Shown here piece after piece: positions 1 through 56,530 of a stretch of 64,000 nucleotides of DNA. A program made the position numbers and the translations under genes. Where the stretch lies: assembly GCA_000091205.1 (NCBI GenBank), contig AP006499.2. One strand, written 5' to 3'. The notes below the pieces were generated by a model. It had not been told where the DNA came from. It was given only the letters and a program-made list of their open reading frames with translations, and did no database searches. Position 1 is the first letter of the stretch; every line of letters starts with the position of its first letter. Source of the DNA: Cyanidioschyzon merolae. Taxonomy: Eukaryota.

Positions 1-789
1 CGCAAACGCAGATCTTCCAGAGACACCGCAACGTCTTCACTTGATGCGCGAATCATGAACACAGCAGCATAAACTCAAGGTTGCAGCCCAACCTAGATGA
101 TATCCCAAAGCAGACTTACAAAGTGTAACCAGTCCTACCACAGGGCCGGCACTTGCCCTCCCGAACACAACCCAGACCGAACAATACGAATTGATTGTAT
201 AGAGCAGGCCGTTGGAGCCGACTACGAGGTTTGGCTTCGCCAATCGCGCGCGCCAGCTCAACGCGCATTCGGTTACCGCAAGTGCATCGCAGAAATCAGA
301 CAAAGGCGACGTCGCACGGAGCACACTTCAAATGAAACGGCGTCGTGATTGGAGCAGTGCCAGGAGCGCCGCGCACACCTCAGATGAAACGCATTCGCAT
401 GCGTGTGTGGCTGCGTGTGTTCGGATCGACGAGCGTCAGGCGCACTGCGATGCGCCTCAGTGCAGCAGCAGCAGCAACGAGATCGGCACAAGATTACGAA
501 GCGATGCGTGCCGGCGCGCGCGTTGTTTCCGAGATCCCAGGCGTCGACGCGTCGATGGTGGTGGTGGTGGCAGGCGGGCGCCTGGATCTCCATGTATGTC
601 AGGGCGGTACTGCGATGGGCAGTAGCGTCGGCACCAGCGACAGAGCCTATAGCAAGAGATTATTCTACGTGAGTTTCCGATCTACGAGACTTTATTTCAG
701 CTGCAGCACGATGCGAACACGCATGTGCCAAGGCGGGGTCTTGGACACGTGTCCTTCATCGATCGGTGAGGCGTCTCGCGCGGTGCACG

Positions 790-3545
790 CATCTCGCGAA
801 GTGAGCGCATCTGGGGGATCAGGCAGTCAATTGGAGCGACGCGCGTGTCGCCGTTGTTGAAGGGAAACGCGATGTTGATCTCTAGTGTGTTGTTCAGCTG
901 TAAAAGTTGTATTTGCGTTGGAGTCGAACAAAAATATAGTTTTCAATTCATTTGTGTTTCAGCCCTCAAACAAGTCTAGTCAAGTGTTCTTTCGCAGTAT
1001 ATAACAGAAGGGTTCACAGAGCGTTCTTTCTCAAGAAACTGAAAAAAGAAAAGTTATGAAAAGCAAGTCCACGATCCTGGAGGCCCAGGGCCGCCGGCTG
1101 CCAGACAAAAAAAACGAAAAACAGTGCCGAGTCCAGAAGAAAAGGAAGAGAAGAAGAACCGAAATGGGGAGGCCCTACGTCGAAGGCTGCAAGAAAGACG
1201 ACAGTACAACGAGATGGTGGTGAAAGCCTTTCTTCTTGGACATATCAAGGATCCGTACAGGGAAAAGTTGCGAGACGCTATCGAAAAACTTGTCGACTCG
1301 TACTCCAAGAGTACTGTCAAGGCGTCGTCAGGACTGATGCATTTGGCGAGGGAGATGTACGAAGACGTGGCGCACATGGAAACGGTCGAGATTCCGGACG
1401 AGTTTTTCGACAAGACGTTTATTCGTCACCTGATGCTTGGTACAGCGGAAACGCGGAGGGAAAATGAGCGGGTTCACGCTCTTCACGAAAACTTCGCGGA
1501 GCTCCGCTTCGAGAGTAATCGATACAGGGGTGATCGGGATATTTAGACAAACGGAGCGAAAAAGCACATCACCAGTCTGAAGTACCATTTGACAGTGAAC
1601 ATCGAACGTTTCGTGATACGGGCCGTGTTTCCACTCTACTCGAGCCTATCTCGCAATGGAAAATGGGCGATTATCAATGACATCACGAACGATCGTAATC
1701 ATGAAGATGAGGTCGAATTTGTCGACAAGAAGGCGGCAAACCAGAGCACGAATGAAGCTTCTGAAATCCGTGCGGTTATACAAGAGCACCGTGCGGTACT
1801 AGGGTTGGCGAATCCAACAGAAAAGATATCAGAGCTGAAAAAAGATAAGGAAAGATGCTATCGCCTCGTCTTACGGTATTTCGCGTTTTCGTTCCGAGAA
1901 CTCGAACCCAAGACCGAAAAGCGTCTGAGTAGGGGAAAAATGCAGAGTCGGAGAGACGGAAGGTTTTTGCAATGGGGAAGCGCTTCAACGTGGTTCCAAT
2001 GTGCAACATTAAGTCACATTTTGTGAGTATCGACTCCGGCGTCCTTTACGGCATCATGAAAGAGATCTGTCGGAGTTCAGTGTCAGCAGGGAGGAATTCA
2101 CCGGCGAAAACCGGGAGACGTACTGGAGGATTAACTTCAATTTCAAACGTCTGGAAGCGAGCAAACAGCAGGTATTCACTGGAATGATCGAAACCGATGG
2201 AGTAGCCTTGCGTGTACACTATCGGCGGTTGAAGAAAGATCGTCCAGTTCCGCCCTCGGCGAACCATGAAGATGAGAAGGAGGCGGATCCTGTGACGCAG
2301 GAGGTGGAGGATAACGACTTTATGGTTGGCGCGGCGAAGCATAAAGATGGGAAGGAGGCGGGTCCTGCGACGCAGGAGGTGGAGGATAACGACCTTGTCG
2401 TTGACGTAACGAAGGATGAAGATAAGAAGGAGGCGGATCCTGCGATGCAGGAGGTGGAGGATAGCCACATTGTCGTTAGCGCTACGAAGCATGAAGAAAA
2501 GAAGGAGGCGGGTCTTGAGACGCAGAAAGTGCATGATGACGACTTTGTCGTTGGCGCTGACCCCAGAAACACAAATATCATCACCATCGCAGCACCGAAG
2601 CGCGCAGAAGATAGTACTGACGGTAACTTGCGTCAGAAAGACATGCGTCTGCTGAGGTTCTCGAGAGCGAGATACGGCCGAGAATCGGGAATCATGAATG
2701 CAAGGAACAAAATCGAGACTTGGAATACAGGAATGAAGGATCTCCTGGAAGCTATGAGCAAGGTGACGAGCCGAGGAGCGGACTTTCATGCTTTTCGGGA
2801 GTTTATGCAAGTTCGTGTTGCTCATTGGGATGCACTGTGGGAGGAGTATACAAAGCCCCGGTGGGCTCGGTTGCGTATGAATTTGTACAGTGGGAAGCAG
2901 CGGGAGTTCGCGATCTTTTTCAATCACTTGAGTGCCCTCAAAGAGGACAAGACTCAAAGGCTCGTAGTAGCATACGGAGCAGGGCGCTGGGCGCCCAAGA
3001 AAGGTACTACGCCAGCTCCAACGACGAGGATGTACAAGTCGTGTGCACGGCGTTTTCTTACAATACCTGTAGATGAGTTTCGAATGTCCTACACACACCT
3101 CGAGCTGGTTTGTACACTTCAGAGGGTCGAGATGGAAAAGTGCCAGCCGAGCCCTGAGGAAATAGCAAAGTACGGACCGCTGACGGAGGAGCAAATGGAA
3201 AGGAGAGCGAAATTTCGTGGACTACTGGCACTGGTGAGTACAACTCCCAACGGCACGAATCGTATGGAGTTTGTTAACCGAGACTTTAACGCCGCTCTCA
3301 ATATAAGGAAATGTGCGGTGCTGGAGACGAGACCTCCAGAGTGGACAAGAGGGAACTTTTTTGGACAACCTCTTCAAGTTCAGTTATATGAGAAGAAGTT
3401 GGAAGCAGCAGTAGGTGGCCGGTCGAAAGAAACTGGAAGGCGTCTGTACGTCAGTTGGAGACTTCTTGGCTAGGGCACGGTTGCCGCCACTACTGTACAC
3501 CGCTGGCGTCGTTCGACTTTCGAACGGCGTTCGGATGCGGCGGAC
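790..3545 (+). mobile_element. TnpB/Fanzor-like (RuvC-nuclease) transposon, copy 1; pseudogenised
   Basis: About 2.7 kb homologous over its whole length to the reverse complement of 23445-26065 and 53700-56530. The 5' non-coding leader 'gcatctggggg..gtcgccgttg(ttg)aagggaaacgcgat..' is shared. The ORF encodes RuvC-I '[20 protein letters not shown]', '[25 protein letters not shown]' and RuvC-III 'NRDFNAALNIRKC'. A conserved tail 'ccactactgtacaccgctggcgtcgttcg' continues past the stop codon. Boundaries are approximate (+/-30 bp). Confidence 0.7.
1056..3473 (+). pseudogene. Fanzor/TnpB-like nuclease ORF of copy 1, interrupted
   Basis: Pieces 1056.., 1124..1546 (in-frame TAG where copy 3 reads YIYGAMKY), 1589..2026, 1972..2187 and 2184..3473 (429 aa intact C-terminal RuvC-like core). 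Frameshifts and the nonsense codon were found by comparison with the other two copies. Confidence 0.7.
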
Positions 3546-3567
3546 TCTTCGGCAGTTTTCGCTCACC

Positions 3568-5271
3568 ATGACACAGGTAGTCAAGAGAAGTGATGCGGAA
3601 ACCGAGTCCTCGTTGGGCGCATACGAGCGCGAGCGACTCGCGCGGATGGAACGGAATCGTATGCTCATGGAAAAGCTGGGTGTCACCTCACTTTCGAACC
3701 GGCTCGAGACGATCACGACTGTTCGGGAGCAAGCCCTCAAACCCATAGGTTACTCGAAACGCACGCCAAAGGCGGAGAAAAGGGCGCGCAATTCTGAAAA
3801 CGAAGTAGACCGTGGAGAGCTGGAGCCACGGCGTCGTTCGCTTCGTGTGCGGGGAATCGCCCCGGCCGGAGCTGGAACATCAGCAGAGGAACCGAAAAAT
3901 AGCCAGCTACAGCTGAAGGAAGAGGAAACATCAAGAGGTCCGTTTTTGGAAGACCAGACGTTCGCAGAGGTTGCCCTAGAAAACTATGGTGCCACTAGCG
4001 AAAGCTCCATGGTCAACGACGACTACGACCGCAGCGACGTAGACGACGTCGATGGTAACAAAGACGACGGAGACCAGAAGAGCTTGTGTACGCGGCGCGC
4101 CAGGTTGTTCCAGCGAGCCTGGTGCGGTGCAATGGCATGCACTTCCTTGTCGACAAGTGAGCATCTCGCGAAGGATCCAAGCCGTTTTCACCGCTGGGTG
4201 CTGGACGAGGCCTCGGGCTTCTTCAAGCTTGTTCCAGCACGTATTTATTCCGCAACCATGCATCCGCGTCTCGATGCATGGACCATGATGGTTGGCGACA
4301 AGGCAGGTCATGTGGGCCTTGCTGTTGTACCACGGGAACGCGTCGCAGAACATGCTGTTCAGGTGCTGTGTATGCGAGTTCACCGCGACACAACCGCTGG
4401 CATGGCACCACGTGCGGGTTCCGCCAACTCCCAACAGCTGCTAACAGTGTCCTACGACGGCAGTGCGCGCTTGCTAGATATCGAAAAACAAACAATTCAG
4501 ACAGTCCTCGTCGATGAGCGAGAACGAATTTTCAAGAGCATAGCGCTCAGTACAGAGAACGACAACGTCTTTTGGACCACTGCCAGCCATCGCTCACTTG
4601 GTGGATTCCTGGTTCGCCACGACCTTCGACAGAGCCAGAAATCGTTCGATGCTTTCGGTATCTCTGACAGCAGAGTCTACTCTGTTAGTTTACAGCATCA
4701 GGGCGCTGCAGGAGCAGTCCCCGGCCATGACGGTCTGCTGGCGGTCACGACGGCGCGAGATGGTGTTCTCATTTTTGATCAGCGTCGAATCGAGACTGGC
4801 GCTACTCGCCGATCAACATCAAAACCGCTTTTTGCTCTACCACACGAGCGCGCAACAACTGCAGCAACTTGGTCTCCGTCGGCGACGCGGCTGCTGACCA
4901 CCTGCTACGATGACTTGCTACGCATATGGCATTACGACGGCAGCGAGTGCTCGCTCGAACACCGCTTTGTACACAACAATCACACCGGTCGATGGGTTAC
5001 GCCTTTTGAGGCATGCTGGGACCCAGCTACGGACCACAAGATTTTTGCGTGTGGATCCATGAATCATAACCCGGTCCATGGCGTGGACCTCTTCCACGTG
5101 GAGCTCAACAAACGATCAGTCTGGAATCGGTTGACTGGCGAGCCCATGACGGCGATTGCGGCTGTCCTGGCCTGGCACCCGGCAGGGCATGCGCTCATAG
5201 GCGGGACTGCATCAGGCAGGGTATATCTATGGGGCGAAGCTCACGGATCTGAGGGCGTCCTCGCAGCGTGA
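3568..5271 (+). CDS. WD40-repeat protein (possibly WDR76/Cmr1-like)
   Basis: The ORF 3415..5271 begins inside the transposon tail, so the likely start is the ATG at 3568 (MTQVVKR). The C-terminal half has WD-like segments (LLAVTTARDGVLIFD, TCYDDLLRIWHYDGS) and the N-terminal part is acidic low-complexity. Confidence 0.45.
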   Translation: MTQVVKRSDAETESSLGAYERERLARMERNRMLMEKLGVTSLSNRLETITTVREQALKPIGYSKRTPKAEKRARNSENEVDRGELEPRRRSLRVRGIAPAGAGTSAEEPKNSQLQLKEEETSRGPFLEDQTFAEVALENYGATSESSMVNDDYDRSDVDDVDGNKDDGDQKSLCTRRARLFQRAWCGAMACTSLSTSEHLAKDPSRFHRWVLDEASGFFKLVPARIYSATMHPRLDAWTMMVGDKAGHVGLAVVPRERVAEHAVQVLCMRVHRDTTAGMAPRAGSANSQQLLTVSYDGSARLLDIEKQTIQTVLVDERERIFKSIALSTENDNVFWTTASHRSLGGFLVRHDLRQSQKSFDAFGISDSRVYSVSLQHQGAAGAVPGHDGLLAVTTARDGVLIFDQRRIETGATRRSTSKPLFALPHERATTAATWSPSATRLLTTCYDDLLRIWHYDGSECSLEHRFVHNNHTGRWVTPFEACWDPATDHKIFACGSMNHNPVHGVDLFHVELNKRSVWNRLTGEPMTAIAAVLAWHPAGHALIGGTASGRVYLWGEAHGSEGVLAA

Positions 5272-14009: not shown

Positions 14010-15256
14010 CGCGGCGAAACGACGTTGACCACGACTTTGGCGACGATGACGATGACGCTGATAACGAACAGCGCTCTCTGAACGCCAGTTTCAAGTGCCT
14101 CGTCACGCCAGAAGCTCTAAGGAAACGTTCACGACAACGACGACGACAACAACAACAGCAACGACAACCACGAAGGAGCGTTAGACGTTCGCCAGCACAC
14201 CAGCGTCGCGAATGCTCCGAAACGGAACGCCGGAGCGGAGCGCGCCAGCCCGTCCAGATTCGGCAACGCGACGTCGGGCGAATCGCGCAGGCAGCAGCAC
14301 GGCGCGCCAGCGCCCAGAGGCCTCCGTATGGATGTGTTCCGATTTTGCTCAGATTTTACAGGATGTTGACACAGGCCAGCGTGCCGCCACGGGGTGGTGC
14401 GCGTGCGATCCGCGCGCGGTGAAGAAGCATCCAGCATACGACATCGGAGAACGCTGGCCTAAGTAAACGTTTTGTCAATGAAAAAAATCCAGCATTCGAC
14501 GCCCTATGTCCAAATTCTATAATCCATGCTTCCTTCCGAACGGACTGGCCGTTCCATACGCTCTATCGTGCGCCGAGTGCGTGCGTTGCTGCATCCGCAA
14601 TAGAGCATATATCGCAGGTGCTTGTGCAGCTCGGAGATAGAACGGCTCTTCGATACCACCTAGGGCGCTTCGGCTCGAGGTATCATGCATTCAACACCGG
14701 ATCGCGTCTCTCCATCATTCTGGGGGCCTGCAAGCTGCGCAGCGAGACTGACTGCCCACGACAGCGCGAAACGATACGCAAGGAGATAACTGCAACCGGG
14801 GCGATACCTGGATGCATGCTACCCGCCCCTAGTCTCAAAATGAACCGCGTTACGGATGAGTCGCTGAGAGCTGACTACAGCTCCCGCCACTGTAGAAGAA
14901 TACGGAGCGATAGCCCGGTAGATGCGTCCATCTCGGGGGATCTTACGCCTAGCAGCTAAACATTCGACAATACGGAACGCTTCCCGCCCCTTTTCAACGC
15001 TTACCACGAAGGTGTAACGAAAAAATGGTCGCGTTGCTCGTTCATGATTCGTTGCTGTTCTCGGTTTTGGGTAGCCAGTCGCGATCGATCGCGGATCGCT
15101 GGCGGCCGCACGTTGCCGGCGGGCATGAACGGCCGCCGCACCTGCATCCGCTTACGGAGGCGGCTTCTGGCCACTCGGGCATATCTTGAAATATTTCAGA
15201 CGCAGAGACTAGCACTTTGCGCTGAAGAGTTGGTTGACCGAAGAGACGTGAACGGC

Positions 15257-17379: not shown

Positions 17380-18720
17380 GGCGGCATCTGGGGTCTGTTG
17401 CCAGCGAACAGAGGCCGTGAGCATGCAATCGTTTCTCTGTACCCGTGTCAGATTAAAATGGAACGCTGGACTGATACAGCTGTTCGTGCACTCCGAGCTC
17501 CTTGCTCCGAAATGCTTCTAAGTGTGCAGTGTCGAGATTCGAAAAGCAACACTTTGGGTTTACGGATCGATCCGCAGCGTTAGGATTCTCGGTCGTCTTT
17601 TCGGATTCTTTTGTTCGACGCTTTGCAGCTGGAATTCGTTACGTCACCGGAATCAAGATGATTCGGGGCGCCTCAAACAAGAGTCCATGAAATAAGCGAT
17701 GTAATTATCCCGTTCACGGGGGGCAAGCCTCTGGGCTGCTCCTTCGGTTACGTGTAGCAGCGCAAATCACGCAGCCTTCAGGTTTTCGATTTTTCGAATT
17801 CATGGCAACTCGTGAGCGGAGCAATGCGAGCCGCTGGGTTCATAGCGACAGCCAGTCGACGTCGGGCGCTGAAGAACTTTTGAAGTCCATGTCGCGACGT
17901 TGCTGTACTTGCTATGTCACATAATCGATTGTGTGCGAAAGCGAAAACCCCTCTCTTTGTGGCCATCGGCGAAACGCCATTCGACATCAGCATCATGCCT
18001 CTCACGCGATATGCTCGCCGAGGTTCGCATCCCAACTATCTAAATGGAAATGCGTCTTGGACTCAGACTTGAGTTATCACGGCGACGGCTTGCAGTGGAG
18101 CGTGTGTCATCGTTTTGCATAACAGGAGCGTAGACGGATCGACATTTCTCGACGTGCTCTCCAGCCTGGGTCTTCCTTCTGGTGCCTTTTTCATCATCAC
18201 GTACACCATCGCGTTCCACAAATCGTCTACCGTATGGAACAGCATGCGCTCGCGTGTTCAAAAAACAGCGAACTCGCTGGGGAGATCGTACAGGAGAGGT
18301 CCGTGATCACAGGGTACGACACAAGGTGCGGAAACCGAGGTGAGCATCGAGAGGCGCCTCTCGTATTTGTCCAGACCACGGACCAGGCGATGATGGAAGC
18401 CTGCACGTCTCACATGGTGCCGGTCGGTGGAGGCGATTTGATGGACGTATAGGAACGAATGACCAGAAGTAAGTGTACCTGCGGTGAGAGGTGCAGCGAG
18501 GCTGTGGACAGAGAACATGAACATGGCAAGCGAATGGTAGATCACAACCTCCGCTTTGCATAAACTGCGTTGACAACATCCGGAAGCAGAAAATGTTCGA
18601 CTCGAACGCTGCCATCAATATTAGACGAGCCGTGAAGACGAGATCCGAAGAGCAGCGTCTGCCGAACATTGTGAGGCAGCCTCGCAGGCTCGAAGTGTGT
18701 CTGGATAAAGCCTGAAGCCG
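17380..18720 (+). repeat. dispersed ~1.3 kb repeat family, copy A
   Basis: Collinear ~70-75% identity to 51490-52790 and 59720-61000. Shared segments include 'aaaatggaacgctg', 'gggtttacgg', 'ggagcgtagacg.atcg..tttctcgac' and 'gaacatggcaagcgaa'. Confidence 0.8.
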
Positions 18721-23444: not shown

Positions 23445-26065
23445 AAGCACGGGTCTGCGTCTTACTTAGCGATGAGCCGCCACGAACGATAAACGTCTTT
23501 CAAAAGAAAAACGCTGTCGCCAGTCGTGTACAGTAGTGGCGACCGGCGCCTTAGACAAACCGTCTCCAACTCAGTGTAGACGCCTCCCCGTCTTTTGGAC
23601 CGGCCACCTACTCCTGCTTCCATTTTTTTCTCATATAGTTCCACTTTGGGAGGTTGTCCAAAAAAATTGTCTCTTGGCAAGTCGTCTCCAGCACCGTACA
23701 TCTCCGTATACTGATAGCGGCATTAAAGTCACGATTCACAAACTCCATACGTTTCTTGCCATCACTGGTTGTGCTAACCAATGCAAGTAGTCCCCGAACT
23801 TTCGCCCTGCTTTCCATTTGCTCTTCCGTCAGCGGTCCATACTTTTTTATATCCTCAGGGCTCCTCTGGCACTTTTCCATATCGACCCTCTGAAGTGTAC
23901 ACCCCAGTTCATGGTGTGTATACGATGTTCAAATTTCATCTACAGGTATCGTAACGAAACGCCTTGCGCACTCCTTGATCGTTCCTGTCGTTGGAGCTGG
24001 CGTAGTCCCTTTTTTCGACGCCCAGCGCCCTGCTCCGTATGCTACAACCAGCCTCTGACTTTCATTCTCCTTGAGGGCACTCAACTCATTGAAAAAATTC
24101 GGAAATCCCCGCTGCTTCTCACAGTATAGATTCATCCGCAGACGAGCCGACCGGAGCTTTGTATACTCTTCCCAAAGTGCATCCCAATGCGCAACATGAA
24201 CTTCCAGGAACTCCCAGAACGCTTCAAAGTCCGCTCCACGGCTCGTCATCTCGCTCAGAGCTTCCAGGTGATCCTTCATTCCATGTCTCGACTTTCTTCC
24301 TCGCATTCATTATACCGGATTCTCGATGGTATCTTGCTCTCGAGAACCTCAAAAGACGCATGTCTTTCTGACGAAAGTTGCCCTCAGTACCATCTTCCGC
24401 ACGCTTCGGTGCTGCGATGGTGATGATATTTGTGTTTCCGGGGTCCGCGCCAACAACAAAGTCGTTCTCCTGCACTTTCTGTGTGGCAGGATCCGCGTCC
24501 TTCTTTTCTTCATGCTCAGCCGCGCCAACGACAAGATCGTTATCCTCCACCTCCTGCATCACAGGATCCTCCTCTTTGTTTTCTTCATCCATCGTTACGG
24601 GCGCAGCCGAGGGCGGAACTGGCCAATCTTTCTTCGACGGCCGATAGTGTACACACAAGGCTACTCCATCAGTTTCGATCATCCCAGTGAATACCTTTTG
24701 TTTGCTCACTTTGAGACTTTTGAAATCGAAGACGTTCTTCCGGTACGTCTCCCGGTTTTCGCCGGTGAATTCCCCCCCTGCTGACACTGAACCCCAGACT
24801 GATCTCCTTCATGATGCCGTAAAGGATTCTGGAATCGATGCTCACAAAATGTGACTTGATGTTGCACACTGGAACGGCACTGAAGCGCTTCCCCATTAGG
24901 AAAGTCTTCCGGTCTAACGACTCTTCATTTTTTCCTCACTCAGATCCATCTCCGCCTTGCGTTCGAGTTCTCGGTCCAAAAATACGAAATCGCGCAGAAT
25001 TAAGGGACCACATCTTTTTCTATGTCTTCTCATATCTGATACCTCTGCTGCTGGATTCGCCAGCCCCAAGACTGCACGTTGCTCTTGTATAGCCTCACGG
25101 ATTGCAGAAGCTTAATTCTTTCTCTTGCGTAATCTCTTCTTGTCAACGAACTCGATCTCATCTTGATACTTTCGATCGTTCGTGATGCCATTGATAATCG
25201 CCCATTTTCCATCGCGAGATAGGCCCGAGTAGAGTGCAAACATGGCGCCTATCATGAAACGTTCGAGGTTTACTGTCAAATGGTTCTTCAGATTCGTGAG
25301 GTACTTCATCGCCCCATAGTCGTAAATATCCCGGTCACCCCTGTATCGAGTACCCTCGAAGCGGAATTCCGCGAAGTTTTCGTGGAGGGCATCCACTAGC
25401 ACATTTTCCTTCAGCGCTTGCGCTGTACCAAGCATCAGTTGACGAGTCAAGGTCTTGTCGAAGAATTCTTCCGGAATCTCGACCGTTTCCATGTGCATCA
25501 CGTCGCCGTACATCTCCCTCGCCAAATGCATCAGCCCTGACGACGCCTTGACAATACTCTTCGAGTCTGAGTTGACACGTTTTTGATAGCATCTCGCAAG
25601 TTTTCCTTCGACGGATCCTTGATATATTTAAGAAGACCGGCGTTCACCACCATCTCGTCGTACTGTCGTCTTTCTTGCCGCCTTCGACGTAGCACCTCGC
25701 CCTTTTGCTTCTTCGCCTTTTCCTGTTCCTCTATATTCGGAACTGGTTCCGTTTTTCTCCGGCAGCTGTCCACGCTACTCCTCCAGGATATTTTACTTCC
25801 TTTTCCATAACTTTCCTTTTTTCAGTATTTTTCGGAAAGAACGCTCTTCGAACGCTTCTGTTATAAACCGCGAAAAATCACTTGAATTATCTAAACCGAA
25901 GTTTGAGACACGATTGAACAGAAAACTATAGTTTGCTATGACTTGAACGCAAATGCAACTTGTACGGCAGAGCAAGATCATAAACATCAGGACCACGTTT
26001 CCCTCCAACGGCAACATGCGCGTAGTATCTCATGCCTGCATGATCTCCCAGGTACGCGTATCGAA
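23445..26065 (-). mobile_element. TnpB/Fanzor-like transposon, copy 2; pseudogenised
   Basis: ORF fragments 25812<-25531, 25531<-25112, 24896<-24669, 24787<-24224 ([17 protein letters not shown]), 24306<-23929, 23880<-23608 (NRDFNAAISIRRC) and 23701<-23462 are homologous in order to copy 1. The stop codon is lost, so the frame reads into the conserved tail. The tail ends ~30 bp from the proA ATG. Confidence 0.7.
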
Positions 26066-27031
26066 CACACTATGTGGAACAAAGAACAGAGACGAACGAT
26101 TCACGAGCTTCGATATATATATATATTTCGTTCCCCCCTCTACGATGAACGTTACAAGGGGGAAAGATTTCGGTATTTTAGAAAGTTTACCTCCTAGGCG
26201 GAAGGTCCATAGAGCCGTACGAGTCTGCTAGGCTGGTGCTCGGTGTGCCTCTAAAGTGGCTGGTGCTTTAGCGAGACCTGAGCAACTCGTCTGCAACGCA
26301 GTTTATACTAGGTCTCGGATAGGGTATGCTGCGTTTGGGCGTCGCCCAGGTCCTAGTGGGCTCCTTGTATATCGCTTCGCGCTACCACAGGCAGAACGTC
26401 TCTCTGTACAGCTTGCAGGCTCCCAGAATGATAATTAACCGTGATTCCGTGTCAGGTGTAGGATTCTGCGAGCCGACGCCCTCAGTGGTATGGCAAAGTC
26501 GTTCTGTCTCCGTGCAGCGTCTGCCCCAGTGGTATACGCGCTACGGCGGGTGCAGCAAGGCAGGCACTCGGCACACGACAGAACATACGAAACGGCCAGT
26601 ATACCCGAGAGGAAGTATAAGTAGTGGAACTTGAATGTAGGTGCTTCATCACTGACGCTTTCCCGCAAGCCATGACCCATCCCGAATTCTGGGATGCATG
26701 GTCAATGTAATCGTTTTGTCATCTGGAAAAACAGCAACATGAACATCGACGACATGCGTCATGAGAAACGTGCCAAGGAATGCTAGTCATATACAAAGCG
26801 GTCATGCGAATCCAGAAATCATGGACATGGGCATCGCAATGCCGGTCCATGATCGACAGCCATGCGAACATGCATGACATGTCCATTGCAATGCGACAAT
26901 CTATGACATGCGGCGATGAAAGAGCGTGCAGCGAACGCGCGCGCCGATCGACATGGCGCGCCGCGATCGAGACGCGCGCGTCGTTCGCGCGGCGGTGACC
27001 TGTTTTCGGTAACGCACAAACGACGACGAGT

Positions 27032-27757: not shown

Positions 27758-30316
27758 GCTTGCGTATCGTTTGCGCTCTGACCAGTGGGCATCGTTGGAT
27801 TGTGGTGCTCGCAGCCGTGTCTGCCGCGCTGACTTATCTTCTCCTCCAGCAAAAGTGTAGATGTTGCTTAGGCGGCTGCAGAGAGCACGATCGTGAACAT
27901 AGGCACCGGTTCCTGAAAGGTCGTCGCTGTATCTGCGGGTCCTGGCTCCACTGTTGATGCAGCAGTCGCTGGGATTCCGGGCCGGGCGAGAAGATCTGAA
28001 AAGTGTACAAGCGACTTAGGCGCAAGGAGCAAGTTGCGTGGACGGATCGACGCGGTCTTCTTATCGAGAGAACGCGAGCAATCAGGGTACTGTCACTTGC
28101 GCTCGACCAAGACTGGCGGTTCGTTTCCCGCGTGGCATCTGTCGTGCTATCCAGGAGCCGCTGCGCGTCACCGTCACGCTCGGTAGGCTTGATGCGGTAT
28201 TCCGCAAACTGGACTGGTTTGAGCAGCATGACGTAACGTTGTGTGGATGCTGTCGCCTTGTTCGCGTTTCCAGGACACCTGCTTTGGGTAGTCCAGTCGA
28301 GTACACGTAGCTTTCTGATGCTACAAGCTCGATAGACCCGTTACCCACGCGTGCGCATTTTTGCAGCCTTTACTGGCACTCCACAGAGCGTATCTACTTC
28401 GTCGAACGTAGGCGACATGGCGCACGGGCCGAGCAAGTGATCATCTAGGTGCGATCAAAACGGTACATTGCCATCCACGACGCAAGAGCGCTTGGTAGAC
28501 GGCATGCAACCATACCAGCATTTATTGCATAGTGCATAATGCGCATCCAGCGTATATCACTGACGAGAGGCGGGCGTGTCGCAGAGAAGACACGCCAGCT
28601 ACGCAGGTCTGAGATTGCGATTGGAGCAGGGCGTTGCGAGCGGCGACGCTCAATGAAGAGCCAACGGAATCCAGTGGCTGGGCACTAACGATACCCCGCA
28701 CAACGCTGGTTGTACATGGAAACTATCTAGCATATACTCAGCAATAGCGAATAACAGAACGCCATCATGGTTCACAAACTGCACAGGAAAGTTGTTCGCG
28801 GTATATACATACGGCGCTCGTGCTGTACTGCGTTGCGGACCGCACCATACCAGTGCCTTGCTTCGGGCGAGAATTCTAAGGGACTCCTCTCGAGGCTTTT
28901 GGATTTTAGTCATAGAAAGTCTCGAACGTTTCAGCACAATGCCCAGACTGCGTATTAAACGATTTTCTCGTACATTCGCTCGAGCCGAAGCTGCTGCATG
29001 CCACGGATGCATGCCACATTTCCAAATGTTTACGAATACCCAGAGGTCTCGGTGCCGAACGTCAGCACACGCACTGTTGCCGGTGGACGCACACCAGCGC
29101 AAGCCGCTCACCATCGATTGCCACTCCACGTGACGTTCGGTCCGCGTACCGTGCAGTATACTGTGCACTCGTCTCTGTTTCATGCTCTTCTTCTCTAGCT
29201 GTCTCAACGGGCGCCCTCGCTGGTGATGCGTTCATGTCATCCTGGATGCATCGACGGGAATGGTAACGAATCGAATCCTGCATTCGGTGAACGCGCTCGT
29301 CGAAGGTACAGGTGGGCGCCAATGTGTGATGCAGCATCTCCAGCGCCACTGGACAGAACCAAACGACACGAATTATCCGTCATTGCCTTTCCAGACACAT
29401 TGAACAAGCTGATGAGTGCAAGCCTCGTGCCCGAGTATGCCAGGAACCGTTGGCAAGCCGAGCGCTGTCCCGGGCACGCTCTAAAGCGTGCGTTGATACC
29501 TTCCATCGGTGCCCTGTTTTCTGGGCGATTGGCCTCAGGCTGCGATGGGTACAACCCAGACACGGTGCGCTTCATTCAGCGTTCGAGACCGATCCGTATC
29601 TAATTTTTGAGGCTGGTCTGATCATTGGTGGCAGCAGCGAAATAAACTTTTTTTGCGACGGCTGAAATCGCTTGGCGAAGCGTCGAGGTATTCTGGAGAG
29701 CGGGGCTTCGAATCTCTGATCCTTTGATCGGGCCGTCTCGCATCCTCTGTCCAGCACATCCTTCATGCTGTCGCGTGATGCCCTAATCGAGACATGATAG
29801 GGAAATGGGAATAGATGGGAGCTCTGCGTCCGGAAACTCGTACGACCGGTTCGTGGACGGGATATGTCAAGGCGAGCGTAGCCAGGCACGTCTTCTTCGA
29901 GTAAGAAGCTATGCGACTTTTAAAGGTGTCTTGCACCTTTCAGTATTAGGGAAGCGAACGACTCTTGTATGGATTCATGGGCGCTAGAACGGTGTGTGAA
30001 AACAGAGCGAATGCCTTTGACAGGATTCAACCTGGGAGAACATGCTGGCACGACGTCGAGTCGGCGCCAAGCTTAGCTTTGTTCCCAATAACCGATTTTT
30101 AGTGGCCGAAAAAGACGGTGCATAAGAGCAGGACAGAAGAATACGGGAAGCAGACGCCGCAGAATGTGCTTCGGCCAAGGATCCGGGGTTGAATGATTCG
30201 CTTTGTTCGTGGATCCATGGGGAATCACAGGATTGCATGGTCATCAGGGCGGGTATTGTCGGGAAGCACGTTGATCGCTCTCGTTTACGAACAGCAGTGT
30301 TTTATTCTTCGAGTAC

Positions 30317-30742
30317 CTATGCACAGGTGTACCTTTTCTTCCGAATCAAAAGTATCATCGAGAGAAACGAAGACTGGTGTCTTCTGCTGTGTAAGCGTTC
30401 GCTCTTCACTGCGAAATCGATGGTGTCTTGTTTCACATGCAACGCTCTCCCATAGAAGCGCGGGATTTTCTCTGTCCACTTGTGTCCTTTCATCAGCTTC
30501 TGAATCAACGATATGGAAGATTCACATCCTATGGCTTCGTTGATCGTGCTATTTAGTAATTGTATGGAATAAATTGGATTGAACAGGTGAAAGTATATCA
30601 TATAGTGTTTGATTAGCTCTGGTTTAAGTGCACGTCGTTCATGTTGTGGACGACGAGAACAGTTGTTCATCCACCAGGTTACCGTAGAATGACTGACTTG
30701 CATATGGGCGGGTAATTCTTCGCAAGCTCGCAGAGACATCAT
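30317..30742 (-). other. possible Tc1/mariner-like transposase N-terminal (HTH) remnant
   Basis: 141 aa ORF in an AT-richer block. 'VSHSTVTWWMN' and 'AIGCESSISLIQKLMKGHKWTEKIPR' resemble the paired-like HTH and 'H..WT.E.W' region of Tc1-family transposases. No DDE domain follows. Confidence 0.25.
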
Positions 30743-32599: not shown

Positions 32600-33155
32600 T
32601 GAATGGACTAGCACTGAAGAACCACGCGTCTGGAGTCGCATCCTCGAACTTGATGGTCATGACTCACCAGTTCATTGCGAGTATCCGTCGAGGACACTAA
32701 AATGTCGGGGATTGGATGCATATCGAGAAACCACGCGTCTGGAGTCGCATCCTCGGACTTGATGGGTATGACTCACCAGTTCATTGCGAGTATCCGTCGA
32801 GGACACTAAAATGTCGGGGATTGGATGCATATCGAGAAACCACGCGTCTGGAGTCGCATCCTCGGACTTGATGGGTATGACTCACCAGTTCATTGCGAGT
32901 ATCCGTCGAGGACACTAAAATGTCGGGGATTGGATGCATATCGAGAAACCACGCGTCTGGAGTCGCATCCTCGAACTTGATGGGTATGACTCACCAGTTC
33001 ATTGCGAGTATCCGTCGAGGACACTAAAATGTCGGGGATTGGATGCATATCGAGAAATCATGCGTCTGGAGTCGCATCCTCGAACTTGGTGGGTATGACT
33101 CACCACTTCATTGCGAGTATCCGTCGAGGACACTAAAATGTCTAGAGGTTGACTC
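32600..33155. repeat. tandem satellite, ~109-bp unit x ~5
   Basis: 'ccacgcgtctggagtcgcatcctcg(a/g)acttgatgg' recurs at 32622, 32731, 32840 and 32949, with a degenerate copy near 33057. The unit contains 'ccgtcgaggacactaaaatgtcggggattggatgcatatcgagaaac'. Confidence 0.9.
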
Positions 33156-41765: not shown

Positions 41766-42543
41766 CGCCTCGCTCGCCCGGAATGCCGATCAGCATCGCG
41801 CAGTCGAGAATCCCTGCTCCATCGCAACGCTCCGTTGATCCGGCGTTCAGGAGCGCCTCGCTCGCCCGGAATGCCGATCAGCATCGCGCAGTCGAGGATC
41901 CCTGCTCCATCGCAACGCTCCGTTGATCCGGCGTTCAGGAGCGCCTCGCTCGCCCGGAATGCCGATCAGCATCGCGCAGTCGAGAATCCCTGCTCCATCG
42001 CAACGCTCCGTTGATCCGGCGTTCAGGAGCGCCTCGCTCGCCCGGAATGCCGATCAGCATCGCGCAGTCGAGAATCCCTGCTCCATCGCAACGCTCCGTT
42101 GATCCGGCGTTCAGGAGCGCCTCGCTCGCCCGGAATGCCGATCAGCATCGCGCAGTCGAGGATCCCTGCTCCATCGCAACGCTCCGTTGATCCGGCGTTC
42201 AGGAGCGCCTCGCTCGCCCGGAATGCCGATCAGCATCGCGCAGTCGAGAATCCCTGCTCCATCGCAACGCTCCGTTGATCCGGCGTTCAGGAGCGCCTCG
42301 CTCGCCCGGAATGCCGATCAGCATCGCGCAGTCGAGGATCCCTGCTCCATCGCAACGCTCCGTTGATCCGGCGTTCAGGAGCGCCTCGCTCGCCCGGAAT
42401 GCCGATCAGCATCGCGCAATCGAGAATCCCTGCTCCATCGCAACGCTCCGTTGATCCGGCGTTCAGGAGCGCCTCGCTCGCCCGGAATGCCGATCAGCAT
42501 CGCGCAGTCGAGGATCCCTGCTCCATCGCAACGCTCCGTTGAT
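41766..42543. repeat. tandem minisatellite, 88-bp unit x ~9, immediately upstream of GALT
   Basis: Unit 'cgcctcgctcgcccggaatgccgatcagcatcgcgcagtcgag(a/g)atccctgctccatcgcaacgctccgttgatccggcgttcaggag'. Copies differ mainly at gagaatcc versus gaggatcc. Confidence 0.92.
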
Positions 42544-42739
42544 CGAGGAAGTACGCCAAGCATCAAGCGGCCGTCACGTGTGCGTGCTGCTCCCGGTCGC
42601 ACGCGCGCTCCTGCCGCCGACCCAGGCGATCTCGCGTCGGGCGCGCACCGCATTATGTCTGTACCATGCTTTGTTTGCTATTTAGGGTATCTTCTCATCG
42701 AAGAAGCGCCCTGGGACCTAACATCCAACTACACCAAGC

Positions 42740-43213: not shown

Positions 43214-44842
43214 AACGGCTGGAGCCGTCTGGGCACACGTACTGTCCAGAACCTGTGCACCGGGAATAGTCCCTATGATGAAAAATTCCTATTTTACTCG
43301 GAACGTAAAGCACGGCGCGAATCGCTTTCGCCTTGAGCCGCCGACGCATCCGCGCGCCGTATTTTTTGACTGCGGCCGCATTTGAGTCTGGCGTCTTGTC
43401 CATGCGTTGTGAGCGCGCGATAACGTGCAGGAGAAACGAGTAGTTCCAGAAGGTGCACCAGACACCATTCGGGTCGTAGGCCGATCTCCAAACGGCTTTT
43501 TGCGAGACGCACCTGTGAAGATGGAGGCTGTCGAGAGCGCGCGCCCTGCTCCGCACTGTACCAAATTCCGGGGACGATCGCGTTCGAGCGCGGGAGCAGC
43601 GCCTCCCGTAAGCAATACGGACCCCATCAAGGCAACCGCCGGGGCTGCGATGCGCGCTACCCCTGCGGGTGATGGCTCCTGAACGTGCACCATCACAGCT
43701 GGGCGTACCAGCGAGCGAACAAAGCGCATCAGCGAGCAGAGCACATGATCGTATGGAACATCGGCATCGGGGGAGCTTTTACTCGTATACGCTGTAGCAT
43801 CAAACGAATACTTAAACCCACATATACCAAGCATACCTACAAACCCGACGATTGTTTGCCCCTAACCGCACAAGCGGATGCATCGCAGCGGCGGCGGCGG
43901 CGGCGGCCGGGGCCGCTCCATATTTCTCCAGCAGGGATCCGATCGTTGACGCATCAAGCGGGTATCCCGGGATGGCGCGATCGCTGCCAGCCTCTGGAAT
44001 GCGGCTCCAGTCGGGACGGGGCGGGACCAGCCGGGCGTGCCCGCTGGTGTGGCATTCTCGACGCATGCCCAGTCGATGCTCCTCGGCGGCGCGTAAAATC
44101 GGCATCACCACCCGTCCGTGCGAACGTGCTGTGCGCATGCAAGAACGATGAGCTGCAGCGCTCTCGCAGACAGCGTCAGGCGACGTCGAGTTCGAGTGTG
44201 TGGGTTTTTTTTCATTGAGAAAACGTTTACTTTGGCCAGCGTTCGCCGATCATGCGCATTGTTCTTTTCTTACCTTTTTTTCTCTTTTTTTCCAGTGCGC
44301 GGTAATGTATCTATCAACCCCCCACTCCCAAGTTACATTACCTGCACTTCTTCTCGGATATTCTGGTCGTTTCGTACGTCCAATCGTGTGCCTAGTGCCT
44401 GCCGAACGCGACAGCAATAGCGCCTATAGCGCCGGTACGGTCGCTGCACGGAGACAGAACGGCGTTGCTGTACCACACAAAGGGCGCCGGCTCGAGGTCG
44501 AGTGTGTGGGTGAGCGCGCGCGCGCGCGCGCGCGTGATCAGAGCGAGGCACACCGCACGCACACCTAGAGTCGCTGTCCATGCGCCACGTGTGCATGAAC
44601 CCCGCGCACCGGTCCAAAACGGAGCGTGCGCCGTACCACCCCGGTGATCCAGGCGCGCCAAACTGGGACTAGGCGCGGCATCGCGACGAGCCTCTCGCAG
44701 AGCGCCCGTTAGCGACGTCCCGCACCGGCGCCGCCCAGTCGAGAACGAATGCCGCCCCCCGGTGATGCCAGACGCGCGCGAATGTTCGCCACTGTCGGAA
44801 TGCTTCCTGTTGCTGCGTGCTGGAGCAATACCTCGGACGGGA

Positions 44843-52912: not shown

Positions 52913-53707
52913 TCAAATTGCTCGATTGGGATCCTGACTGCGCGCAGAAGCTGCACTTTGTTCGCTGGTGAACGCCCTGCCAGAGGCTGGTTTCCGAGGC
53001 ACACCCCGCGTGGCCTCCGTCAGCCAGCCACCACCCGAGTCCTGGCCGTGACCGCTCGAAACCGCACTCGAGTTCATCGTTCGCCGTGAAGATGCGTCAG
53101 TGGTCGGCTCGATGTACTGCGCTGCGGGAGCCGAAACTCCACCCTTCTCCAGTCCGTCTGCCTGGTCGGTGTCCTCAGTGCCGGACGCTTGGCGTTTGCC
53201 CCAGAACCAGCCGCGCCCCGTTTTCGTGGACCCGGACGATGCTGATGCGGCCGCTGTGGTGTGCGTTGGGCCCGCATCCGCCGCAAACTCATGATTCTTG
53301 CCAAAGAAGACGTTGAGGAAACTGAAAGAGACGATGACGGCCCCAGATACAATTAGGAGCACTTTGCTCACGGTATCGCTGTCGCTAACACCAGCCGTGA
53401 TAGCCAGCGAACCGGTGAACATCTCGAACAAGCCACGTCCCCAGCGCCCTTTCAAGAACCCGAACGGGCGGAAAAAGAAACGAGGCCGACCGATTTCACC
53501 AAATATAATCAGCAAACCGAAAAACGCGACATACAGCATCACAATGAAGCCCAGCGGGTTGCGCAGCGCCTGTGCTGCTGTCGTGAAAAGCGTCACGAGC
53601 CCGAAAACTCCGGTGAAAACGAGAAAACCCCCCGAAACCACTGTGCACCACCGGAGCACTGTGCTTACCTTCCGCAGATCAGCCTCAAAGCAAATGCAGT
53701 TCTTCAT
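52913..53707 (-). CDS. hypothetical multi-pass membrane protein
   Basis: Likely start MKNCICFEADLRK at 53707; the longer ORF to 53791 runs into the transposon tail. Four hydrophobic segments are followed by an S/T/G-rich C-terminus. Confidence 0.45.
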   Translation of the reverse strand: MKNCICFEADLRKVSTVLRWCTVVSGGFLVFTGVFGLVTLFTTAAQALRNPLGFIVMLYVAFFGLLIIFGEIGRPRFFFRPFGFLKGRWGRGLFEMFTGSLAITAGVSDSDTVSKVLLIVSGAVIVSFSFLNVFFGKNHEFAADAGPTHTTAAASASSGSTKTGRGWFWGKRQASGTEDTDQADGLEKGGVSAPAAQYIEPTTDASSRRTMNSSAVSSGHGQDSGGGWLTEATRGVPRKPASGRAFTSEQSAASARSQDPNRAI

Positions 53708-56530
53708 CGAAACGAGCCCAAAACGTGCGATGAACGACGCCGACCGTGTACAGCAGTGGCGAACCGTACGCCCTGGACAGACCGTGTCCAACTGACGTGT
53801 AGACGCCTCCCCGTCTTTTCGGACCGGGCATCCACCACTGCTTCCAACTTCTTCTCATATAATTCCACTTTTAGAGGTTGTCCAATAAAGTTCTCTCTTG
53901 TCCAATCTGGAGGTCTTTCCTCCAGCACCGCACATTTCCTTATATGGATAGCGGCATTGAAGTCTCGGTTCACATACTCCATCCGTTTTTTGTTGCCATT
54001 GATTGTACGAACAAGCGCAAGGAGTCCACGAACGTTCGCCCTTCTTTCCATTTGCTCCCCCGTCATCGGTCCGTGCTTTGCTATTTCCTCAGGGCTCCGT
54101 TGGCACTTTTCTATCTCCACTCTCTGAAGTGTACACCCCAGTTCCTGGTGTGTATACGATGTTCGAAACTCATCTACAGGTATCGTAACAAAACGCCTTG
54201 CGCACGCCTTGTACACCCTCGTCGTTGGAGCTGGCGTAGTTCCTTTTTGGGTCATCCATCGTCCTGCCCCGTACGCTACAACCAGCCTTTGACTTTCATC
54301 CTCCTTCAGGACGCTCAACTCATTGAAAAATTCGCGAACGCCCGCTGGTTCCCACAATACAAATTCATTCGGAAACGAGCCCACCGGGGCTTGGTATACT
54401 CCTCCCACAGCGCATCCCAATGGGCAACACGAACTTCCATGAATTTCCGAAAAGCTTCAAAGTCCGCTCCACGGCTCGTCATCTCGCTCAGAGCTTCCAG
54501 GTGATCCTTCATTCCATGTCTCGACTTTCTTCCTCGCATTCATTATACCGGATTCTCGATGGTATCTTGCTCTCGAGAACCTCAAAAGACGCATGTCTTT
54601 CTGACGAAAGTTGCCCTCAGTACCATCTTCCGCACGCTTCGGTGCTGTGATGGTGATGATATTTGTGTTTCCGGGGTCCGCGCCAACAACAAAGTCGTTA
54701 TCCTGCACTTTCTGTGTCACAGGACCTGCCTTCTTGGTTTCTTCATGCTTCTCCGCGTAAACGACATGCACGTTATCCTCCACCTCCTGCGTCGCAGGAT
54801 CCACCTCCTTCTTTTCTTCATCCTTCGCCGCGTAAACGACAAGGTCGTTATCCTCCACCTCCTGCATCGCAGGACCAGCCTCCTCCCTTTCTTCATGCTT
54901 CGTCGTGTCAACGACAAGGTCGTTATCTTGCACCCTCTGCGTCGCAGGATCCGCCTCCTTCTCATCTCCATCCTTCGCCACGTCAACGACATGCACGTTA
55001 TCCTCCACCTCCTGCGTCGCAGGACCAGCCTCCTCCTTTTCTTCATCCTTCGTCACGGGCGCAGCTGAGGGAGGGACTGGCCGATCTGCCTTCAACCGCC
55101 GATAGTGTACACACAAGGCTACTCCATCGGTTTCGATCATTCCAGTGAATATCTTTTGTTTGCCGACTTTGAGCCGTTTGAAATCGAAGATATTCTTCCA
55201 GTACGTCTCCCGGTTTTCGCCGGTGAACTCTGTCCTCCTTACATCGAACTCCGGACTGATCTCCTTCATGATGCCGTAAAGGATTCTGGAATCGATGCTC
55301 ACAAAATGTGACTTGATGTTGCACATTGGAACCACGTTGAAGCGCTTCCCCATTAGGACAGCCTCCCGTCTCTCACACGCTTCATTTTTTTCCTCACTCA
55401 GCTTCGTTTCTGCCTTGCGTTCGAGCTCTCAGTCCAGAAACACGAAATATCGCAGGACGAGGCGATAGTATCTTTTCTTATCTTTTTTCATCTCTGATAT
55501 CTTGTCTGTTGGATTCACGAGCCCCAAGACTGCACGGTGCTCTTGTATAGCCGCACGGATTCCAGAAGCTTCATTCGTGAACTAGTTTGACGCTTTCTTG
55601 TCAACGATTTCGACCTCATCTTCACGCTTGCCATCTTTCGTGATGCCATTGATCATCGCCCATGTTCCTTTGCGAGATAGGCCCGGGTAGAGTGCAAACA
55701 CGGCGCGTATCATGAAACGTTCGAGGTTCACTGTCAAATGGTTCTTCAGGTTCGTGATGTACTTCATCGCCCCGTATATGTAAAAATTCGAGTCGCCCTT
55801 GTATCGAGTACCCTCGAAGCGGATTTTGGCGAAGTTTTCGTGGAGGTGCACTAGCACATTTTCCCTCCGCGTTTTCTCTCCACCAAGCATCAGGTGTCGA
55901 ATAAACGTCTTGTCGAAAAACTCGTCCGGAATCTCGACCGTTTCCATATCCGTCACGTCGCGATACATCTCCCTTGCCAAATGCATCAGTCCTGACGACG
56001 CCTTGACAACAATCTTGGAGTACGAGTCGACACGTTTTTTGATAGCGTCTCGCAACTTTTCCCTGTAGGGATCCTTGATATGTCCAAGACGAAAGGTTTT
56101 CACCACCTTCTCGTCGTACAGTCGTCTCTCGTGACGCCTTCGACGTAGGGCCTCCCCCTTTCGGTTCTTCTTCTCTCCCTGTTCTTCTGGACTCGGCACT
56201 GTTTTTTGTTTTTTTCTAGCAGCCGGCGACCATGGCCCTCCAGGATCGTGGACTTGCTTTTTCATAACTTTCCTTTTATTAGTTTTTTTTTGAAAAAGAA
56301 CCCTCTTTGAACCCTTGTGTTATATACTGCGAAAAAACACTTGACTAGACTTGTTTGAGGTTTGAAGCAAAAACGAACTGAAAGACTGTACTTTGCCACG
56401 TCTTTAACGCAAGTACAGCTTGCACATTAGAGCAGCACGCTATTGATCAGGATCGCGTTTCCCTTCAACGGCGACAAGTGCGTCGCATCAGTTGACTGCC
56501 CGATCTCCCAGATGCGCTCAGTGAGCGCGC
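53700..56530 (-). mobile_element. TnpB/Fanzor-like transposon, copy 3; pseudogenised
   Basis: Collinear with copy 1. Pieces are 56265<-55582 (227 aa basic N-terminus 'RKKQKT..KKNRKGEALRRRRHERR'), 55353<-54457 (298 aa with ~6 acidic repeat units and [17 protein letters not shown]), 54539<-54315 and 54420<-53704 (VDEFRTSYTHQELGC..NRDFNAAIHIRKC). Confidence 0.72.

Follow-up and report, generated by a model that had tools for sequence, protein, structure and literature searches.

The window, a stretch of 64 kb (64,000 nucleotides) of contig AP006499.2 of Cyanidioschyzon merolae, contains three copies of one DNA repeat, each of which combines a disrupted nuclease gene with a short non-coding tail. 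The structure predicted for an intact relative assigns the gene to the Fanzor1 type, and the tail, which occupies positions 3474-3536 in the first copy, marks the repeat's right end. The most likely original function of the tail, with a probability of around 0.55, is that of the scaffold of the guide RNA (omega-RNA) of this Fanzor1 family. An earlier interpretation of the window, made from its letters alone and referred to here as the sequence-only reading, had proposed the tail as a candidate for such a role, as it would be expected in an active system.

Three copies of one repeat

Copy 1 is located on the plus strand (577-3536), and copies 2 and 3 are found on the minus strand (23487-26737 and 53732-56542, respectively). 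Their pairwise identity is 80-85%, and BLAST comparisons between them yield E = 0, which is far beyond chance. The part of copy 1 that is common to all copies extends from around 795 to 3536, with the three-way homology beginning at 780-805. Positions 577-795 form a 5' module of one subfamily only, represented by the loci L016, L073, L035, L009 and L041, whose homology with copy 1 begins at 577. A scan of metagenome contigs revealed at least 337 matching stretches, the best 80 loci of which were kept; after de-duplication, these provided 69 alignable tails from around 55 distinct insertion sites. One locus, L003, is identical to the window across the compared stretch 3330-3520. As far as sequence comparison goes, the BLAST similarity among the copies speaks for common descent only and is no demonstration of selection on the tail. 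The sequence-only reading had taken the conservation from copy to copy as a sign of function; however, any repeat stays conserved up to its own end.

A disrupted Fanzor1-type nuclease gene

The coding region of copy 1 is a pseudogene (1056-3473, plus strand) with an in-frame stop codon at 1544-1546 and frameshifts near 1970 and 2070, and it ends with the stop codon TAG at 3471-3473. Only the C-terminal 429 codons (2184-3473) remain open, and RuvC motifs, including NRDFNAALNI, are present in this open reading frame (ORF). Stops and frameshifts are found in all three window copies, some of them at common and some at copy-specific places. A search of the 80 loci for an intact ORF found none; the longest ORF encodes 722 amino acids and is truncated at both ends. 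The window copies are dead, fossil Fanzor1 elements, and the system is inactive here; the mention of an active system in the sequence-only reading is not supported.

The family of the nuclease was set by structure, because the sequence searches against Pfam and PDB were silent. A Pfam search with a local library gave no match for the window ORFs or for the intact relative P0113, and single-sequence as well as profile searches of the PDB returned noise only; a precomputed label reads DUF8286. Protein searches identified 191 close homologues, nearly all of them from metagenomes of the Joint Genome Institute (JGI), followed by a broad family of intact proteins of 600-730 amino acids. Copy 1 shares 48% identity over 72% of the query with P0113, for which an AlphaFold (AF2) model was built from a 68-sequence alignment (pLDDT 90.6, pTM 0.87). 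In a Foldseek comparison of this model with the PDB, SpuFz (9ceu/8gkh) ranked first (E 1.9e-18 to 5e-17, TM 0.64-0.73), followed by PpFz and GtFz; all three together span E 1.9e-18 to 8e-16 and TM 0.53-0.73, whereas Cas12f and other Cas12 proteins were far weaker (~1e-4). In the 68 relatives, D398 and E569 of the RuvC catalytic D-E-D triad are invariant and D636 is conserved in at least 90%. Furthermore, PF07282, the zinc-finger/Cas12f1-like TNB domain, matches 11 of the 68 relatives with a best E of 1.1e-5. On the strength of the modelled fold, the catalytic triad and the PF07282 matches in relatives, the window ORF is thus classified as a Fanzor1-type nuclease gene, which supports the sequence-only reading on this point.

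The ORF of copy 1 also contains a tandem repeat of 75 bp (25 codons) with four units (2260-2558, plus strand). The encoded segment is acidic and lysine-rich and lies between the N-terminal half and RuvC-I. Two units are present in copy 2 (24445-24588), around five in copy 3 (54678-55054) and up to around seven in other family members.

The tail and the right end of the repeat

The tail of copy 1 starts directly behind the stop codon. In copy 2, the stop codon TAA (23551-23553) is followed by a tail at 23550-23487, which carries a terminal hairpin of a second type and is matched by a covariance model of the tail at 23485-23567 with 68 bits. In copy 3, CAG at 53773-53775 stands in place of a stop codon, and the terminal hairpin lacks its 3' half; the copy 3 tail (53732-53772) is recognisable over 41 nt only, and the covariance model matches at 53686-53789 with 44.5 bits. 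Past the stop codon, the homology between copies 1 and 3 ends at 3514/53732, which corresponds to 41 nt, and that between copies 1 and 2 extends to around 3533-3536. Across the 69 copies, the majority frequency is 0.72 at 3529-3536 and 0.37 at 3537-3560, with the collapse occurring at 3537. Because conservation stops at 3536/3537, the conserved tail has a length of around 63 nt (3474-3536). Position 3536 is confirmed as the right end of the repeat, and the boundary is sharp across around 55 independent insertion sites. The last conserved bases (3532-3536, plus strand) have the consensus YGGTG and read CGGAT in copy 1; the 3' end is the one feature kept by every copy.

These results allow the extent given by the sequence-only reading to be corrected. 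The homology beyond the stop codon that it described for all three copies is real, but it measures around 63 nt, and 41 nt in copy 3, instead of 70-100 bp. The sequence quoted for copy 1 is present and begins at 3439, inside the ORF. For copies 2 and 3, it gave 23445-23560 and 53700-53800; both ranges include the respective tail and extend beyond it into the flank, by around 40 and 30 nt. The view that the tail is a transposon right end is borne out by the sharp boundary.

Anatomy, conservation and predicted folding of the tail

The consensus of the tail consists of GGCG-[variable 7]-CGCC, followed by ACTACTGTACAC, nGY, YGGCGTCG TTCGA CTT TCGAA CGGCGTT and YGGTG; all elements described below refer to the plus strand of copy 1. 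Stem-loop A (3459-3471) covers the last codons and the stop codon and has the consensus AGAC-nnnnn-GTCT with conserved stems and a variable loop; 87.5% of its cells are paired, and it is broken in copy 1 (GGCT). Stem-loop B (3474-3488) has a near-invariant GGCG/CGCC outer stem with majority frequencies of 0.96/0.95 and a hypervariable interior (0.62). It is followed by the near-invariant 12-mer ACTACTGTACAC (3489-3500), which is predicted to be unpaired and has a majority frequency of 0.93. This motif was never found apart from Fanzor ORFs, and no solo tails were found. Terminal hairpin C (3505-3531) is formed by a stem of 10-12 bp with a CTT loop. Copies with the type-1 hairpin contain GGCGTCGTTCGA-CTT-TCGAACGGCGTT; copy 2 and others have a type-2 hairpin with ..ACAACGTTTTTCTTTTGAAAGGCGTTGTT.. 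instead, which pairs in a shifted register to give a stem of 14 bp. The long terminal hairpin is therefore kept in both diverged sequence types. Compared with the ORF baseline of 0.88, conservation is uneven: the stem of B and the 12-mer lie above this value, and the interior of B and the spacer in the tail (0.64) lie well below it.

Mean folding z-scores relative to shuffled sequences were calculated for the 69 copies, which are related by descent, so that the values describe the family and do not represent independent trials. The tail has a mean z-score of -1.60 (sense) and -0.70 (antisense), and the terminal hairpin reaches -2.30 and -1.27, respectively. The controls gave +0.25 (sense) and -0.54 (antisense) for an ORF segment, and -0.10 and -0.30 for the flank. 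Folding is biased towards the sense strand because the stem contains G.U pairs, and this bias fits either an RNA or a top-strand single-stranded DNA structure.

A proposed relic of an omega-RNA scaffold

The nuclease family, the element boundary, the anatomy of motif and hairpins and the sense-strand folding bias form the basis for the proposal that the tail originally served as omega-RNA scaffold. The DNA repeat encodes Fanzor1, and positions 3474-3536 are its non-coding right-end segment; the repeat spread to dozens of genomic sites and then decayed. This segment and the last 15-30 nt of the ORF are most likely what is left of the omega-RNA scaffold of the family, in which stem-loop A over the stop codon, stem-loop B, the single-stranded 12-mer and the terminal hairpin at the transposon boundary would follow each other in this order. 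Transcription of a live copy would continue past the right boundary, and the resulting RNA would be bound by the protein. As known from SpuFz1, the first ~15 nt of the flank would then guide the nuclease; by comparison with the positions reported there (PMC10432273), the guide of copy 1 would lie at roughly 3537-3552. The tail resembles published Fanzor1 omega-RNAs in position, size and predicted shape, which is a resemblance and not a demonstrated membership.

Intact relatives allow a comparison with other tails of the protein family. In the relatives P0121, P0122, P0124, P0126, P0127, P0128 and P0134, the Fanzor gene is located directly downstream of a DDE_3 (Tc1/mariner/IS630-type) transposase gene. 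The element encoding P0121 was found on six contigs, which are 98-99.9% identical over the common stretch and represent around four insertion sites; on L086, it extends from 734 to 4379, has imperfect terminal inverted repeats (TIRs) of around 33 bp and ends with a tail of around 185 nt. Ten families of relatives have tails of 170-250 nt, which contain a CAAnCGGyGG lead, a ATCTATATA box and a 3' TIR of the form GGTGTTCCA..GAGTATA. Independent minimum free energy folds of the first 50-100 nt of these tails show the same nested topology with unrelated stem sequences. This recurring topology is good, though informal, evidence that the tails of the relatives contain a structured RNA, and it counts in favour of the omega-RNA reading. 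RNAalifold on nine of their tails was uninformative, the underlying MAFFT alignment not being a structural one.

Some further observations were made on these relatives. The TIRs of the P0121 family (L085-L090) read TATACTC..GGAACACC, and a conserved GT adjoins the putative TA duplication of the left end on its outer side. By likeness to the CA+TA motif (CATA) of SpuFz1, the target-adjacent motif (TAM) of this family may be GTTA. At the P0113 locus (L002, 1-33 and 2294-2325), a right-end-type TIR, GTGTTCCACA..GAGTATAC, is present downstream and around 90 nt upstream of the Fanzor gene in the same orientation, which could represent a tandem arrangement or a solo right end. A homology of the window tail to the tails of L086 and L091 that had been noticed by eye (GGCGGG..ACTGTA..GGCGTCG) was discarded, as it was neither significant nor recovered by the covariance model.

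Several results weigh against a role of the tail as omega-RNA scaffold. Alignments of the window tail with the tails of the DDE_3-linked relatives gave p values of 0.12-0.83, and the window tail has neither the ATCTATATA box nor the GTGTTCCA..GAGTATA TIR of the relatives. When the tail covariance model R1 was run over 134 kb including 16 relative loci, only the three window copies were detected at E <= 10. A search of Rfam produced no relevant match at either the gathering or the E <= 10 threshold. RNAalifold on 66 tails recovered only three GGC/GCC pairs of stem-loop B, with -2.8 kcal/mol and no covariation. The covariation check across genomic copies that the sequence-only reading had proposed was run twice and gave no signal above shuffles: in alignment A5, 78.2% of the cells were paired compared to 77.7% in shuffles, with scores of 0.116 and 0.117, and in alignment A8, the values were 85.1% and 85.2% with scores of 0.086 and 0.101, respectively. 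A null result is expected, and the power of the test low, if most substitutions stem from the neutral decay of dead copies. The folding z-scores are modest and come from copies of common ancestry, which are not independent samples. A comparison of the left end with the reverse complement of the right end revealed no significant TIR (p 0.02-0.87 against shuffles). Lastly, every ORF examined is disrupted and the protein partner is hence gone. The omega-RNA proposal of the sequence-only reading is thus supported by position, size and sense-strand folding, but neither by covariation nor by homology to the tails of relatives.

The absence of covariation and the modest z-scores also bear on the idea that the tail is an ordinary 3' untranslated region (UTR) or a neutral hitch-hiker, in which case one master copy would stand behind all others and the hairpins would be incidental. 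Two additional points fit this idea: the conservation of the tail, which ranges from 0.62 to 0.96, brackets the value of 0.88 of the neutrally decaying ORF, and the tail is lineage-specific. However, conservation is strongly patterned, being high in the stems and the 12-mer and low in the loops, folding exceeds the ORF and flank controls in a strand-specific manner, and the terminal hairpin is kept by two sequence types. In addition, no AATAAA-type signal was seen by reading from the stop codon to the boundary, nor before the next ATG 31 nt further on. A neutral tail is for these reasons considered unlikely.

The left side of the repeat and its mobilisation

In contrast to the constant 3' end, the left side of the family is a mosaic of alternative 5' modules, and the 5' ends cluster at few positions. 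Around 18 copies carry a 680-bp extension, which is located at 26057-26737 in copy 2, and around 22 copies carry other repeated upstream modules, for example copy 1 from 577. The constant Fanzor unit begins at a palindrome, GCGCTC-nnn-GAGCGC. At the 5' boundary of copy 3 (around 56514-56530, minus strand), the palindrome reads GCGCTCAcTGAGCGC, with the consensus GCGCTCA-c-TGAGCGC; it is degenerate in copy 1 (around 795-812). With the palindrome at the 5' and the hairpin at the 3' end, the Fanzor unit is bounded by hairpin-forming sequences on both sides. Some left junctions adjoin T-rich sequence.

The 680-bp module begins with a T-tract followed by GACAAAACGTTTAC, and sequences of this kind are present at 26057-26737, 14544-14988 and 44329-44498 of the window. 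It precedes around half of the Fanzor copies and also occurs alone, inverted relative to the Fanzor unit or upstream of DDE_3 remnants; it is probably the left part of a partner DNA transposon. The 680-bp extension had been considered as the left end of the element, an assignment that was overturned by the mosaic of 5' modules, including an inverted copy of the module. From 904 onward, the contig of locus L001 matches the window with 98.4% identity, and upstream of this point it contains the 680-bp module and not the sequence of the window. Either the assembly is chimeric across the repeat, or strains differ or were rearranged at this place, and L001 was dropped as an orthologous locus for a rate comparison because its 5' part is unlike the window.

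A tail that ends sharply behind a hairpin of 10-14 bp could also be a signal at the DNA level, that is, a cis-acting right end for a DDE_3/Tc1-mariner or an HUH/Helitron-like enzyme, with no guide RNA being involved. Such a signal would be in keeping with the palindrome at the 5' start of the unit, which places hairpins at both ends, and with the combination of heterogeneous 5' sides and a constant 3' end; Helitron derivatives that carry Fanzor1 only, with hairpins at the 3' end and a variable 5' part, are known (PMC3627910). The G.T pairs of the stem would be tolerated in top-strand single-stranded DNA as well. Relatives of the nuclease are accompanied by a DDE_3 transposase, and DDE_3 remnants, for instance at 30262-30733 of the window, are found in this genome. 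The latter is a degenerate transposase fragment on the minus strand, which is 25-39% identical to the transposases beside the intact Fanzor relatives. No DDE_3 transposase is present in the three window copies, and the genome carries remnants only.

A search for target-site duplications (TSDs) in the flanks of 20 copies with both ends revealed neither a TA nor any other duplication. The lack of a TSD can be read in favour of a DNA signal, but the missing TA duplication also argues against it, as do the non-significant match between left and right TIR (p 0.02-0.87) and the termini: the elements end with ..TTYGGTG, their left ends do not start with TC, and the 5'-TC/CTRR-3' termini of Helitrons are thus not found. 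A potential TIR seen by eye, GACAAAACG on the left and CGTTTGGTG on the right, was rejected as not significant. No gene for a Helitron Rep/helicase (Rep/Hel) protein was seen in a search that was not exhaustive, and the ends of the DDE_3 fragments do not carry the tail. Furthermore, a DNA signal leaves the near-invariant 12-mer and stem-loop B upstream of the hairpin unexplained. A pure DNA signal is therefore regarded as rather doubtful, though it partly overlaps with the omega-RNA reading, since the transposon end of Fanzor1 elements belongs to the RNA scaffold.

Neighbouring host genes

The window has the look of DNA from an intron-poor eukaryote, with a GC content of 50-62% and long uninterrupted ORFs, among them those for a WD40 protein, a gamma-glutamyl phosphate reductase (ProA) with a poly-Q tail and a COPI-associated protein; a search of the window for tRNAs found none, and an Rfam scan gave no hits, rRNA included. 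The repeat stops 2-47 nt before the first ATG of a host ORF on the same strand in all three copies. These ORFs start at 3568 (WD40, plus strand), 23439 (ProA, minus strand) and around 53707 (COPI_assoc, minus strand), the end of copy 3 being placed at around 53710 in the last case. Within the family, 21 of 54 distinct insertions have a same-strand ORF of at least 150 amino acids that begins at most 120 nt past the 3' end, compared to 12.5% of random positions and strands. These figures suggest 5' UTRs or core promoters as insertion sites, together with a bias in orientation.

It is conceivable that the 3' end was co-opted, or selected at insertion, as a donor of a promoter or 5' UTR for the downstream host gene, and both the position of the three window copies and the family-wide excess are in line with this idea. 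However, no promoter evidence was found, around 60% of the insertions have no such neighbour, and the conservation of the tail is that of the repeat to which it belongs and not independent of it. Moreover, the bias can be explained by an insertion preference for 5' gene regions in combination with orientation selection, which makes a promoter donor very improbable.

Other features of the window have no relation to the tail. Two near-perfect tandem arrays with 98% matches are located at 32620-33142 (109 bp, 4.8 copies) and 41766-42544 (88 bp, 8.9 copies). The regions 17442-18612 and 59786-60962 share three collinear segments on the same strand, which are 66-73% identical, and are probably diverged paralogous genes.

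Comparison with known systems

Fanzor1 nucleases and guide RNAs encoded at the 3' end of their genes are already known, so that the locus adds a family and not a principle. In SpuFz1, an 80-nt region separates the stop codon from the 3' inverted repeat, and a scaffold of 75 nt encoded there is followed by a guide of 14-15 nt derived from the flank (PMC10432273). The omega-RNAs (reRNAs) of Fanzor1 have three stems and a scaffold that includes the transposon end (PMC10711439); scaffolds can also be very small (PMC11423790). If an intact or reconstructed copy of the window family were active, its scaffold of around 63-80 nt would rank with the shortest ones. The family alignment of around 65 copies with two hairpin variants provides a ready consensus for such a reconstruction.

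For the bacterial TnpB proteins of IS200/IS605 elements such as ISDra2, the 3' end of the nuclease gene likewise encodes the guide RNA (omega-RNA or reRNA). This RNA lies across or behind the stop codon and terminates at a hairpin-bearing right end, and no TIRs are present, as would be the case for the window family. However, the window protein is a eukaryotic Fanzor1 of around 700 amino acids, and no TnpA gene is present. No pseudoknot was defined for the window family, and its heterogeneous left ends yielded no TAM.

The capture of Fanzor1 genes by Mariner and Helitron elements, including Fanzor-only derivatives, was described in 2013 (Bao & Jurka, PMC3627910). Among these, the Fanzor1-only Helitron derivatives CRe-1,2,3 of Chlamydomonas share several features with the window family: they are non-autonomous, have a 3' subterminal hairpin and combine a constant 3' end with varying 5' sides, and T-rich sequence is found at some left junctions. 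The window family differs from them in that its termini are not of the 5'-TC/CTRR-3' type, no Helitron Rep/Hel was found and its 5' ends are clustered rather than scattered.

The SpuFz1 locus of Spizellomyces punctatus (Saito et al. 2023, PMC10432273; PDB 8GKH, 9CEU) resembles the window family in the protein fold and in the multi-copy nature of the element. The tails of both have few stem-loops and a similar scaffold size, and in both the guide is expected just outside the boundary. In contrast to the window family, for which neither a significant TIR nor a TSD was found, SpuFz1 loci have clear inverted repeats of 30 nt and a CA+TA motif at the left end. The SpuFz1 copies are intact and expressed, whereas all copies of the window family in the 80 loci are disrupted. 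S. punctatus also has 'ghost' loci that consist of the omega-RNA region alone, while no solo tails were found for the window family.

The DDE_3-linked Fanzor1 elements, among them PUl-1 and PUl-4 of Pythium ultimum (PMC3627910) and the intact metagenomic P0121, P0122, P0124, P0127, P0128 and P0134, encode the same protein family, with 35-65% identity of the relatives to P0113. In these elements, too, Fanzor-only derivatives exist beside transposase-bearing ones, and DDE_3 remnants are present in the genome from which the window derives. Their tails of 170-250 nt with nested stems led by CAAnCGGyGG, the ATCTATATA box and the TIR have no counterpart in the window family. It could be speculated that a minimal, lineage-specific omega-RNA scaffold of around 63-80 nt has taken the place of the TIR of these relatives and of their scaffold of 170-250 nt, and that the unit, bounded by hairpins rather than by TIR and TSD, was mobilised as a single strand or by another non-canonical route, with a preference for landing in sense orientation just upstream of host start codons; as a whole, this scenario seems quite unlikely. 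The contrast between the window family and its long-tailed, TIR-bearing relatives could be informative on the co-evolution of guide RNA and transposon end in an element whose mobilisation machinery changes.

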